A stretch of 3,126 nt of DNA from Escherichia coli (GTDB lineage Bacteria; Pseudomonadota; Gammaproteobacteria; Enterobacterales; Enterobacteriaceae). The DNA lies in the NCBI RefSeq assembly GCF_003334385.1, contig NZ_QOWN01000095.1. One strand, written 5' to 3'. The notes under the pieces are model-generated. The model saw nothing but the letters and a program-made list of their open reading frames with translations. It was not told where the DNA came from and did not search any database. Shown in pieces: positions 1 through 3,126 of the stretch; the first letter of the stretch is position 1, and each line of letters opens with the position of its first letter. Made by a program: the position numbers and the translations under genes.

Positions 1-1867
1 GTACATTCACCAGTCCCTGACGCTGCTGAAGCAGTTCATTCCCCAGCCCCAGCAGACGGTTGAATTCCGTATGCTGAACATTCATCTGCAGCAATGCCTG
101 GTATGCTCTGTTCTGCTCTGCTGCCTCCTCGCGTATCCTCGCCACACGGTTGTATTCCAGTGACGCCAGAGCTTCCTGTACAGACTTCGCCTTTTCCTGC
201 ATCTGTGTCAGTCGTGACTGTTCAACCGCCAGTTTGCCAGTTGCCTCCGCAAGGCCGTGGGTTATAATCTCCACACCTGAACCACCCTGTGGATTTTCCT
301 GCAGCCAGCGCTGATAGTCAGCAATCTGTGTTTTCAGTCCCCGGACTTTACTTTCCTGCTCAGCAATCAGACGATTCTGCTCTTCCAGTGCCTCGCGGGT
401 TTTACCCTCATTATCAGCCAGTTCCGGAAGGGTCATTCCCGGTACCTTTGCCCGGATTTCATCAATCGTCGATGCATACTGACGGGCGGACTCCCTGGCC
501 TGTTCCTGATTCTGGTACACCGTGTACCAGGCACCGGCTCCCAGCATCAGTAAACCGGGTATCCCGCCGACAAGCGAAAGCAGGGATGCCGCGCCACTTT
601 TCAGCATTCCCGTAACCGACGTGGCATTCTCCAGCGCCTTCCCCGAGGCCGCCACCGCCTGATTCGACTGTACCAGTGCGGCATTGGCCACAATCATGGC
701 CCGGCGTTTTGCGACGGCATTCTGTGTGGCCAGCGCCTCCGCACTGCTATTTCTGGCCAGTGCAAGTTCAGCCTGTGCCAGTTGCCAGGCACGTTCTGCC
801 GCCAGCGCGTCAGCTGCCGCCTTACGCTGCACCTGAACAGCCGCATCTGCCTGTGCGGCTGCAAGGGCAACCGTCCCGGACTTCGCCGCGATCAGCTCTG
901 TGGTGGCCTTTCCCACGCCTGCGGCCATATTGCCAAAGTACCGGGCCACCCCGACGGCAACCAGCGCCCCCGCGGCTGTTGCCACATTATCAATATTACC
1001 GGCAACACCGTTCAGCACGCCGGAGAGCGTTTTCGTCGCTCCGCTGGCTTCATTCGCGCCACCCACCCAGGCCATAAAGGCGTTTTCCACCTTTGTGATC
1101 CCGTCAGAGACCGTTTCCGGCATGGCGGCATATTCATCACGCAATACCCCCAGCTGGCTGATTAACGCAGGAACGACTTTATCCGCCGTCAGTTTGCCGT
1201 CGTCCGCCATCGCCTTAAGGTCTTTACGGGCCACGCCCATACCCGCAGCCAGTGCACGTACGATCCGGTCTCCGCTTTCATTGACCGAATTAAATTCCTC
1301 ACCGCGTAACACACCCTGTGCCAGCGCCTGGCTGAACTGGGTGATCACCGAGCCCGCCTCTGCCGTACTGGCACCGGAGATTTTCAGCCCCGTGGAAATG
1401 GCCTCCGTCACCTTCAGCACATCATCAGCACTGTAGCCATATTCACGCATTGAGGCTGCCGAGCGGGCAAACAGGGCCGCATTATCTGAAAATGCCGTGC
1501 CCGTCCGCTGGCTGATATCCATCAGCACTTTCTGTGATGACGAAAATTCATCGGATGACTGCGACGCCTGTTTCAGTCGGGCATTCACGGAACTCCATTC
1601 ATCGGCCAGAGAAATCAGGTGTCCGGTGGCAAAGGCACCTGCAAATGCCCCCGCCGTTCCGGCAGCTGAAGCGCGGATTTCCGTCAACTGGCTGTTCAGC
1701 TCAGCCAGGGCGCGTCGCTGCTCCCGGGCGACTGCGGCAGCCTGACGCCCGCCATTCTGCAGGGTCCGGTAATATTCACTGCCCATGCGGGAAGCCCGCT
1801 GGATCTCCGACTGGAATGACTGCGAATTTGCCGAAATTTTGATAATCAGTTCACGTAACGTCGCCAT
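1..1867 (-). CDS. Phage tail tape measure protein, N-terminal ~622 codons; partial, C-terminal end lies beyond the window start
   Basis: Minus-strand frame is open from ATG at 1867..1865 to position 2; I checked 2..1020 codon by codon on the plus strand and found no stop, and hand-translated the rest. An in-frame TGA sits immediately upstream of the ATG (plus 1868..1870), so this is the first possible start. GGAG Shine-Dalgarno at plus 1876..1879, 8 nt before the ATG. Translation begins MATLRELIIKISANSQSF and contains SQALAQGVLRGEEFNSVNESGDRIVRALAAGMGVARKDLKAMADDGKLTADKVVPAL, which matches the conserved tape-measure N-terminal domain as I remember it. Followed by Ala/Gln-rich helical low-complexity sequence and hydrophobic segments. 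Sits directly downstream of the G/T chaperone pair as in lambda. Confidence 0.85.
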   Translation of the reverse strand, partial: MATLRELIIKISANSQSFQSEIQRASRMGSEYYRTLQNGGRQAAAVAREQRRALAELNSQLTEIRASAAGTAGAFAGAFATGHLISLADEWSSVNARLKQASQSSDEFSSSQKVLMDISQRTGTAFSDNAALFARSAASMREYGYSADDVLKVTEAISTGLKISGASTAEAGSVITQFSQALAQGVLRGEEFNSVNESGDRIVRALAAGMGVARKDLKAMADDGKLTADKVVPALISQLGVLRDEYAAMPETVSDGITKVENAFMAWVGGANEASGATKTLSGVLNGVAGNIDNVATAAGALVAVGVARYFGNMAAGVGKATTELIAAKSGTVALAAAQADAAVQVQRKAAADALAAERAWQLAQAELALARNSSAEALATQNAVAKRRAMIVANAALVQSNQAVAASGKALENATSVTGMLKSGAASLLSLVGGIPGLLMLGAGAWYTVYQNQEQARESARQYASTIDEIRAKVPGMTLPELADNEGKTREALEEQNRLIAEQESKVRGLKTQIADYQRWLQENPQGGSGVEIITHGLAEATGKLAVEQSRLTQMQEKAKSVQEALASLEYNRVARIREEAAEQNRAYQALLQMNVQHTEFNRLLGLGNELLQQRQGLVNV

Positions 1868-1875
1868 TCACCTTT

Positions 1876-1879
1876 CTCC
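1876..1879 (-). promoter_or_regulatory. Ribosome binding site (GGAG) for the tape measure gene
   Basis: GGAG on the minus strand, 8 nt upstream of the ATG at 1867. An extended purine-rich GGAGAAAGGTGA precedes the start. Confidence 0.5.
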
Positions 1880-1885
1880 GGGCGT

Positions 1886-1906
1886 AAAAAAACCGCCTCA
1901 GCGGTT
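1886..1906 (-). terminator. Weak intrinsic-terminator-like hairpin with U-tract in the T-to-tape-measure intergenic spacer
   Basis: Minus-strand RNA reads AACCGC-UGAG-GCGGUU followed by UUUUU. Stem arms are plus 1891..1896 and 1901..1906, loop 1897..1900, U-run from plus 1890..1886. Lies between the T stop (1915..1917) and the tape measure start (1867). The stem is only 6 bp, so at best a partial terminator or mRNA-stability element. Confidence 0.3.
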
Positions 1907-1914
1907 CTCATCAT

Positions 1915-2594
1915 TCATGACTGTGCTGCAAAGCTCAGCGCGTCTTCCAGCGCCGCAAACGGATCCACCTCCGGCTTATCCTCATCCTCGCCCCAGCAGA
2001 GCATGGCGTCCTTCAGTGCAACATTCATCCCCTGTGCCCCAAAAACCGCTTTCACGATCTGTGCATTACGGATATCCCCGCGCTCATCACCCAGCGGGGA
2101 TACCCTGTCGAACTCCATCCACATCATCGCCTCGCTCGCACTCAGGCTGTGCCGCAGTTCGGATAAGGTGCGCCCCAGACGGAGCGCAAGTCGCATCAGA
2201 AAGCGAATTTCCGGGCGGGCTACTTTTTTCTGGCCGACTCTGCATCAGCGATCAGTTCCAGTGCCTGACGCAGCAACCGGGCATGTACCGGACCATAGAC
2301 GGCCAGCACCTGCTCACGGTCGTCCGGAGTGAACACCCGCTGCAGATCCGTATCACACAGGACATCGCAGAACAGCGTCACATCCGCTTCCAGGTTACGG
2401 CGGGTTTTCGCCACCACCGACAGGGTATCGTCATCCTCTCCATCACCATTGAGCACTTCCTGCCACAGATACCAGGCCTCTGCCGAAGGCTCCCGCAGCA
2501 CCACGCTGACATTACCCCATTCCGGCACCTTCACCGTTTTATGACGAAACCCTGACAGTCTGGCCAGCGCCAGCGTTTTCAGATCCTTTTTCAT
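1915..2594 (-). CDS. Tail assembly chaperone G-T fusion made by -1 programmed ribosomal frameshift (gpGT-like)
   Basis: The -1 frame relative to G is open from the slippery site through TGA at plus 1915..1917. After the slip the translation continues KK-VARPEIRFLMRLALRLGRTLSELRHSLS...EDEDKPEVDPFAALEDALSFAAQS. The T segment has no credible Shine-Dalgarno of its own before its first ATG at 2196. This matches the conserved G/GT arrangement of lambdoid tail modules. Confidence 0.7.
2220..2594 (-). CDS. Phage tail assembly chaperone (lambda gpG-like), 124 aa
   Basis: ORF on the minus strand ending at TAG (plus 2220..2222). Preferred start is the ATG at 2594 (MKKDLKTLALARLSGF...), which has AAGGGGA 9 nt upstream and begins 17 nt after the stop of the major tail protein gene. 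Small acidic protein located between the major tail protein and tape measure genes, ending in a slippery heptamer; this position and architecture are typical of G-type chaperones. Confidence 0.75.
   Translation of the reverse strand: MKKDLKTLALARLSGFRHKTVKVPEWGNVSVVLREPSAEAWYLWQEVLNGDGEDDDTLSVVAKTRRNLEADVTLFCDVLCDTDLQRVFTPDDREQVLAVYGPVHARLLRQALELIADAESARKK
2223..2229 (-). other. -1 programmed frameshift slippery heptamer A_AAA_AAG
   Basis: Minus strand reads C AGA AAA AAG TAG in the G frame. The X_XXY_YYZ heptamer A_AAA_AAG occupies plus 2229..2223 and is immediately followed by the G stop codon TAG (2222..2220). A -1 slip reads AAA AAA GTA GCC CGC... into the T frame. The same heptamer is the known dnaX frameshift site in E. 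coli. Confidence 0.65.
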
Positions 2595-2603
2595 GATGAC
2601 CCA

Positions 2604-2610
2604 TCCCCTT
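2604..2610 (-). promoter_or_regulatory. Ribosome binding site (AAGGGGA) for the G chaperone gene
   Basis: Minus-strand AAGGGGA sits 9 nt upstream of the ATG at 2594, in the 17-nt spacer after the major tail protein stop codon. Confidence 0.5.
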
Positions 2611-2611
2611 A

Positions 2612-3126
2612 TCAGGCGGCTGCGCTCACTGTCACGGTGCATTCAACAGACGTCACACTCTGTGCTTTCTCTGCCGAATCGGTCACCACGCAGGTATATT
2701 TCCCCGCATCAGCGGACTGCGCACCTGGCTTACTGAAGGTGTCTGTCGTCTGACCGTCAACCGGCTGACCATCCTTCTTCCAGGCGTATTTATACGGCGG
2801 CGTTCCCCCGTTGGCACTGACTGACATTGTCAGCAGCGCACCGGTATTCACGGTAAGTGTCTTATCCAGATTTTTCCCAAACGCCAGCGGTACCACAAAG
2901 GACACCGGTTTGCCTTTCAGACGCAGTGAAAACGTTGCTGCCACCACGCCGTTGGTACCGGATGACCAGGTGTGCTGACGCACTTCCGCCAGGAACTTAA
3001 AGCCCTTACCGGACGGAAACTGCACCTTAAACGCATACAACGCGTCATTGTCATAGGCATCACGCAGGGCGTTCTGGGCCTGATTCAGATAAAAATTACC
3101 CGACATGGAAATCTCGGACGACGCCC
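2612..3126 (-). CDS. Phage major tail (tube) protein, lambda gpV-like, C-terminal part with Ig-like domain; partial, N-terminus beyond the window end
   Basis: Minus-strand ORF ends at TGA (plus 2612..2614). The frame stays open upstream of the ATG at 3106 to the window edge, and there is no Shine-Dalgarno before that ATG, so the true start is probably outside the window. The segment YAFKVQFPSGKGFKF resembles the lambda gpV mid-region (recalled as AYKIRFPNGTVDVF). The C-terminal ~80 aa carry an Ig-like signature (YKYAWKKDGQPV...ADAGKYTCVVTD). Located immediately upstream of the G/GT chaperone gene. Confidence 0.8.
   Translation of the reverse strand, partial: ASSEISMSGNFYLNQAQNALRDAYDNDALYAFKVQFPSGKGFKFLAEVRQHTWSSGTNGVVAATFSLRLKGKPVSFVVPLAFGKNLDKTLTVNTGALLTMSVSANGGTPPYKYAWKKDGQPVDGQTTDTFSKPGAQSADAGKYTCVVTDSAEKAQSVTSVECTVTVSAAA

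Follow-up and report, generated by a model that had tools for sequence, protein, structure and literature searches.

What kind of tail module lies in a 3,126-nucleotide (nt) stretch of Escherichia coli DNA (NCBI RefSeq assembly GCF_003334385.1, contig NZ_QOWN01000095.1; the whole stretch is hereafter the window), where a truncated tail tube gene, two chaperone frames and a truncated tape measure gene follow one another on one strand? An earlier note, made from the DNA letters alone, had taken the window for an internal slice of a lambdoid tail module that reproduces the canonical lambda-type tail assembly block. Our analysis, which bears directly on gene identities and order, the frameshift site, homology and the genomic context of relatives, leaves us highly confident that the window comes from within the late (tail) operon of a lambdoid E. 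coli prophage, and that its tail genes are of the type found in phage HK97. Judged from the DNA, the module is lambdoid in its architecture and HK97-type in its sequence.

Gene content and sequence family of the module

Coordinates throughout are window positions, and all features are read on the minus strand, from 3126 downwards. The coding information lies on the minus strand throughout, the GC skew of the plus strand is negative across the entire window, and four genes were identified: the tube gene (V-like), cut at its 5' end; the chaperone gene G; T, in the -1 frame; and the tape measure gene (H-like), cut at its 3' end. Each of the minus-strand open reading frames (ORFs) matches a tail family, with E values between 1e-46 and 1e-231, and for this reason they exceed what chance would produce. 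The four longest plus-strand ORFs (108-256 amino acids, aa) had no match in PHROGs and were treated as antisense artefacts of a coding region of 58% G+C. The order of the genes on one strand and the 17-nt and 47-nt spacers given in the earlier note proved exact to the base, and the ORF map bears out its claim that both edge genes are cut: 67 codons are missing from the start of the tube gene, and 622 of the ~1088 codons of the tape measure gene are present. The features are as follows.

2612..3126, minus strand: major tail (tube) protein gene, 3' 71%; codons 68-237 and TGA at 2614..2612, with the N-terminal 67 codons outside the window
2645..2881, minus strand: C-terminal immunoglobulin (Ig)-like domain of the tube protein, residues ~149-227 (Pfam Ig_3 1.5e-8, I-set 2.8e-7, Ig_2 3.6e-7)
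2595..2611, minus strand: V-G spacer of 17 nt, with a Shine-Dalgarno-like motif, AGGGGA, 9 nt ahead of the ATG (read from the sequence)
2220..2594, minus strand: tail assembly chaperone gene G, 124 codons; ATG at 2594, TAG at 2222..2220
2223..2229, minus strand: slippery heptamer A_AAA_AAG, immediately 5' of the G stop; the last three sense codons are AGA AAA AAG
1915..2223, minus strand: T segment in the -1 frame, open from the slip site to TGA at 1917..1915
1868..1914, minus strand: T-H spacer of 47 nt (read from the sequence)
1886..1909, minus strand: terminator-like hairpin, GAGAACCGC-UGAG-GCGGUUUUU followed by a U run, within the T-H spacer
1..1867, minus strand: tail tape measure gene, 5' 57%; ATG at 1867, with the C-terminal part past position 1
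576..922, minus strand: mosaic segment of the tape measure gene, without a nucleotide match in the Stx-phage relatives
524..586, minus strand: hydrophobic stretch of the tape measure protein, residues 428-448 (read from the translation)

The tube frame is open from the window edge, with its first full codon at 3124, to the TGA. In the prophage of E. coli SCU-104 (locus L001), which agrees with the window at 99.5% of bases over 3124 nt, the homologous gene has 238 codons, and the window begins at its codon 68. The tube protein of the full-length relative matches phrog_158, 'major tail protein', with an E value of 6.7e-117, and Pfam matches to the tube domain are weak (Phage_TTP_11, 1.6e-4; Phage_tail_2, 2.7e-4). 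When compared to the HK97 major tail subunit gp12, the tube protein is 68% identical in a gap-free alignment of 234 residues that includes the Ig-like domain, and the Ig-like part also matches solved phage Ig-like decoration and tail proteins. (Note that the tube stop at 2612..2614, TGA in the window, is GGA in SCU-104, whose gene stops one codon further on, at TAA.)

The protein encoded by G matches Pfam Phage_TAC_1 over its full length (residues 1-124; 8.8e-61), phrog_344 (E 9.1e-47) and the Protein Data Bank (PDB) entry 2OB9, 'Tail assembly chaperone' (E 4.5e-46), and is 63% identical to HK97 gp13. The tape measure frame is free of stops to base 2. Its product matches phrog_339, 'tail length tape measure protein', with an E value of 5.4e-231 and TIGR02675 (tape_meas_nterm) at 4.1e-23. 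The tape measure protein of the full-length relative (1088 aa) is 57% identical to HK97 gp16 (1089 aa) over its full length and contains TMP_3 (residues 83-272), Phage_HK97_TLTM (residues 411-694; 1.1e-74) and Tape_meas_lam_C, and it passes the curated cut-off of TIGR01541; the window holds residues 411-622 of the Phage_HK97_TLTM domain. A search of the tape measure gene for tandem repeats returned a trivial 5-nt array only. Because the tube protein, G and G-T could be placed in no NCBIfam family, the gene names rest on Pfam, PHROGs, the PDB and identity to HK97. The marks of an HK97-type module were found in full, namely Phage_TAC_1 and 2OB9 for G, Phage_HK97_TLTM for the tape measure protein and a full-length alignment to gp12 for the tube protein.

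These assignments bear on whether the module might be a true lambda-family (Lambdavirus) one, in which V, G, T and H are orthologues of the lambda genes (NC_001416) by sequence as well as by order. The gene order and the frameshift logic are alike in the two, and T belongs to Phage_tail_T in both (5.6e-18 for the window and 1.6e-13 for lambda). Moreover, lambda V matches phrog_158 at 1.7e-39 and the window V matches phrog_41 at 1.2e-12, and from these profile cross-matches it follows that the two tube proteins are distant homologues; in a BLASTP comparison with lambda H, just the C-terminal third of the tape measure protein aligns, at 26% identity. In contrast, BLASTP of the window proteins against lambda V, G and T returned a single, unconvincing match, of 25 residues in V (E 0.005); G and T gave none. 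The window tube protein reaches an E value of only 0.052 against Phage_TTP_12, to which lambda V matches at 2.5e-70, and its Ig-like domain is of the I-set/Ig_3 type, whereas lambda V has a Big_2 domain at the equivalent position. The window G-T has Phage_TAC_1 and Phage_tail_T only, without a match to Phage_TAC_2, whereas lambda G-T has Phage_TAC_2 and Phage_tail_T; at the Pfam level the window and lambda have just the T domain and the C-terminal domain of the tape measure protein in common. HK97, at 57-68% identity, is far closer. A Lambdavirus module is therefore refuted at the level of sequence families, which makes this alternative very improbable, and what survives of it is distant homology and a common architecture. 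Of the canonical lambda-type block proposed in the earlier note, then, the synteny and the mechanism stand but the sequence family does not, V, G and H being HK97 alleles. Since HK97 is itself a lambdoid phage, the label "lambdoid" stands in refined form.

The G and T frames and the frameshift site

The heptamer A_AAA_AAG at the end of G is the sole zero-frame heptamer of the form X_XXY_YYZ within the gene, and it is found at the same place in SCU-104, YYZ-2008, vB_EcoS-640R1, phi467 and vB_EcoS-611R1. In lambda, mEp390 and ECP1 the slip heptamer is G_GGA_AAG and lies some codons ahead of the G stop. The G genes of HK97 and mEp234 end in CGG_GAA_AAG (L004 7826..7858 in HK97), with no canonical zero-frame heptamer, and the records of both phages state a -1 frameshift.

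A slip on A_AAA_AAG would yield a predicted G-T fusion of 226 aa with the junction peptide ...SARKKVARPEIR... This fusion matches phrog_14766, a family of annotated G-T fusion proteins, from end to end (residues 2-225 on 2-224 of 224; E 3.7e-86), and its T part matches Pfam Phage_tail_T over fusion residues 152-222. The first ATG in the T frame (at 2196) is preceded by no Shine-Dalgarno motif in the sequence, and the frame is open throughout the 33 nt that separate this ATG from the slip site; for these two reasons T fits production solely as a fusion. The slippery site and the end-to-end match to phrog_14766 argue for a predicted G-T fusion, with T as a -1 frameshift extension of G rather than a gene of its own. 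(In the RefSeq annotation of SCU-104, T appears as a stand-alone gene of 93 codons, 'phage tail assembly protein T'; L001 20931..21212, corresponding to window 1915..2196.)

In lambda, G and G-T are chaperones for the tape measure protein, and the frameshift sets their ratio. By extension from what is known of lambda and HK97, from which the following picture of frameshifting efficiency, chaperone action and length determination is drawn, a single mRNA would yield both G and G-T, with a small minority of the ribosomes slipping back one base on A_AAA_AAG before the G stop. The two proteins would cover the tape measure protein and bring in the tube protein, and would be absent from the finished tail. 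The tube protein would polymerise around the tape measure protein, the length of which would set the length of the tail, and its C-terminal Ig-like domain would decorate the exterior of the tube. The hydrophobic stretch within the tape measure protein reads SLLSLVGGIPGLLMLGAGAWY, and any role for it is putative.

The T-H spacer and its hairpin

The T-H spacer contains a hairpin with a core stem of 6 pairs (4 of them G-C, extendable to 9 pairs) and a 4-nt loop, followed by 7 U. It is predicted to fold at -10.8 kcal/mol (z -2.77), a value matched in 0 of 200 shuffles. The element has the sequence form of an intrinsic terminator, a G+C-rich stem-loop and then a U run, and a GGAG ribosome-binding motif lies downstream of it at 1879..1876.

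Across HK97-type modules, five sequence variants have a hairpin with a U run at the equivalent place, ahead of the tape measure ribosome-binding site. The first is that of the window and YYZ-2008; the second, in Stx2a_F349, has an extra U:A pair in the stem (CCUGC/GCAGG); the third, in 640R1, phi467 and 611R1, has the loop UUCG; the fourth (CCCGC/GCGGG) is found in HK97 and mEp234; and the fifth (GCCCGC/GCGGGC) in mEp390 and ECP1. No hairpin is present in the 13-nt spacer of Burkholderia phage KS9, a distant relative. In both HK97 and mEp234 the hairpin follows a small moron gene, gp15, and is annotated as a terminator in both records; the window does not contain the gp15 moron, and its hairpin stands at the HK97 moron site. 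The spacer hairpin is most likely an intrinsic terminator, its function being predicted from what is known of lambda and HK97. In lytic growth, RNA polymerase modified by Q would read through it.

A weak covariance-model match to Rfam RF01394, the small RNA (sRNA) IsrK of Salmonella Gifsy-1, spans 1953..1886 on the minus strand, with 27.1 bits and, for the window, an E value of 0.0038. Like IsrK, the matching stretch closes with a terminator hairpin of this kind, but its place is in a tail operon, over the 3' end of T, whereas the true isrK adjoins the Q-like antiterminator gene antQ in Gifsy-1, upstream of orf45-anrP (PMC4825925). With a score of 27.1 bits as against the gathering score of 50 bits, and at the wrong locus, an identity with IsrK is rejected; the match consists mostly of T coding sequence plus a generic terminator, and because the real isrK adjoins antQ in Gifsy-1 it is best explained by the hairpin. 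We consider it highly unlikely that the hairpin is a working partial terminator that lowers expression of the tape measure protein relative to that of the tube protein and the chaperones and also releases a stable 3' fragment of the T mRNA (~1953..1886) as a prophage-derived sRNA; the same site is the slot into which the moron is inserted in HK97.

In Klebsiella phage ST147-VIM1phi7.2, an IS21-family element (L013 1317..2073), composed of a transposase and an AAA ATPase, lies on the opposite strand directly after the T homologue, at the expected start of the tape measure gene.

Relatives, genomic context and comparison with known systems

Full-length matches of 99.4-99.5% identity were found in SCU-104, EC2 and four others, and 1247 of 5426 complete E. 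coli genomes (about a quarter) have a match to the module, in up to 7 places per genome. The 3124 aligned bases contain 16 differences from SCU-104, and the two end bases left unaligned contain one more; of these 17, 10 are synonymous.

The flanks that the earlier note had predicted, with M/L/K/I/J-like genes and fibres past position 1 and head and connector genes past 3126, are those seen in the close relatives SCU-104 and YYZ-2008, where tail terminator and connector genes precede the block and M-L-K-I-J follow it. In SCU-104 the genes upstream of the module encode a tail completion protein, a protein of the HK97-gp10 family, head closure, connector, portal, capsid, terminase, lysis functions and Q. 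Farther upstream lie NinB/E/G, O/P-type replication genes, cII, cro, the repressor, cIII, kil, gam, bet, exo, xis and int. Downstream of the module come an M-like gene, a porin gene, L, K (a C40 peptidase), I, J, lom and the tail fibres, and then host btsS. The prophage is integrated at the host gene mlrA, which its int end abuts. YYZ-2008 and other long-tailed Stx-converting phages are arranged as in SCU-104.

Three further features of the SCU-104 prophage lie outside the stretch that corresponds to the window. A full-length porin gene annotated ompC is located between the M-like gene and L (L001 25067..26230), as a moron-like insertion; the portal gene (L001 15522..18268) is annotated as frameshifted; and a side tail fibre gene (L001 33092..34276) is split into two partial pseudogenes. 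This copy of the prophage may be defective, or the record may contain assembly errors.

Two alternatives concern what the module belongs to. That it comes from a stand-alone cluster for a tail-like particle (a flexible F-type tailocin) with no phage genome attached is scarcely credible: no support for it was found, and all close relatives examined place the module between head/connector genes and M-L-K-I-J in a complete lambdoid genome with terminase, capsid and portal. The other alternative is that the window derives from a defective or cryptic prophage remnant that no longer builds tails. The earlier note had held that an intact prophage, a remnant and a phage genome cannot be told apart from the window alone, and rightly so; the 99.5% relative is an integrated prophage. 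Many O157-type prophages are known to be defective, the portal and side tail fibre annotations of SCU-104 point in the same direction, and E. coli genomes contain up to 7 copies of related modules. Set against this, the frames in the window are all intact, the slippery site is retained and the differences from SCU-104 include the 10 synonymous ones. Moreover, the SCU-104 prophage retains its integrase, excisionase, regulators, replication and lysis genes, terminase, capsid and full tail set, and its portal frameshift could be an assembly error. A remnant that has ceased to build tails is thus possible, but we regard it as rather unlikely.

Nothing was found that contradicts the assignment of the window to the tail operon of a lambdoid prophage with HK97-type genes, and the points that weigh on the other side are limits to it. 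No 100%-identical record was found in the collections searched. Three IMG/VR contigs share an exact 34-mer that spans three window-specific differences, and they match only the first 2204 nt. The 96 nt from the slip site onwards fold no better than shuffles (z -0.18) and thus provide no sign of a frameshift-stimulating structure; to our knowledge, lambda likewise has no downstream stimulatory structure. Finally, a simple scan for consensus promoters and terminators gave counts not above those in shuffled sequence and did not list the spacer hairpin, which it missed because the stem was probably extended into the U run.

The relatives also reveal that the tape measure gene is mosaic. With blastn, the match to YYZ-2008 ends at query position 2204 (window 923) and restarts from window 575 at ~70% identity. 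Over residues 1-300 the tape measure protein is 88-100% identical to that of YYZ-2008, whereas residues 351-450 are 72-78% identical to HK97 and 18-52% identical to YYZ-2008; past residue ~450 the protein is nearer to YYZ-2008 again and diverges strongly from HK97. Among complete E. coli genomes, ~95 have the full mosaic form. Mosaicism of this kind, here with a junction within the tape measure gene, is usual in lambdoid phages.

The module is already known, HK97 and lambda being the phages in which its parts were characterised. Found in roughly one in four complete E. coli genomes, and in Stx-converting phages sequenced by the dozen, it has little discovery value. What is gained is the right name for the window: part of the tail operon of a lambdoid prophage with HK97-type alleles, complete with a canonical A_AAA_AAG site for G and G-T that automatic annotation splits into two genes.

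Of the known systems with which the window was compared, the V-G-T-H block of lambda resembles it in gene order, in the logic of the G/G-T frameshift and in the M-L-K-I-J-lom-stf order downstream. Lambda also shares a C-terminal Ig-like domain on the tube protein, the Phage_tail_T domain and the C-terminal domain of the tape measure protein (Tape_meas_lam_C, TIGR01541). It differs in the families of G and of its tube and Ig-like domains, as described above, and in a shorter H of 853 aa. In addition, lambda T overlaps H, with neither spacer nor hairpin between them; because of this overlap the T-H spacer of the window falls outside the lambda pattern, and the suggestion in the earlier note that both spacers fit this pattern fails for that one.

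Much closer in nucleotide sequence are the long-tailed Stx1- and Stx2-converting phages of the genus Pankowvirus (YYZ-2008, 2851, Stx2a_WGPS6 and JLK-2012) and the Stx1a phages, which are 94-97% identical to the window over the first 2204 nt, that is, from the tube gene to about codon 315 of the tape measure gene, spacer and hairpin included. They share the flanking gene order as well, and differ in having no nucleotide match at window 922..576 and only ~70% identity in the part that follows.

HK97 itself (NC_002167), in which gp13 and gp14 are the G and G-T chaperones and gp16 is the tape measure protein, has the same gene order on one strand, proteins of nearly the same size (238/234, 124/128 and 1088/1089 aa for the relative of the window and HK97, respectively) and identities of 68%, 63% and 57% for gp12, gp13 and gp16. 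Further common features are the Ig-like C-terminal domain of the tube protein, a -1 frameshift where G ends and, immediately ahead of the tape measure gene, a terminator-like hairpin. Unlike the window, HK97 carries a moron of 62 codons, gp15, that separates T from the terminator, and it has a putative terminator in the gap from the tube gene to G, which in the window is just 17 nt; the slip site is CGG_GAA_AAG in HK97 and A_AAA_AAG in the window.

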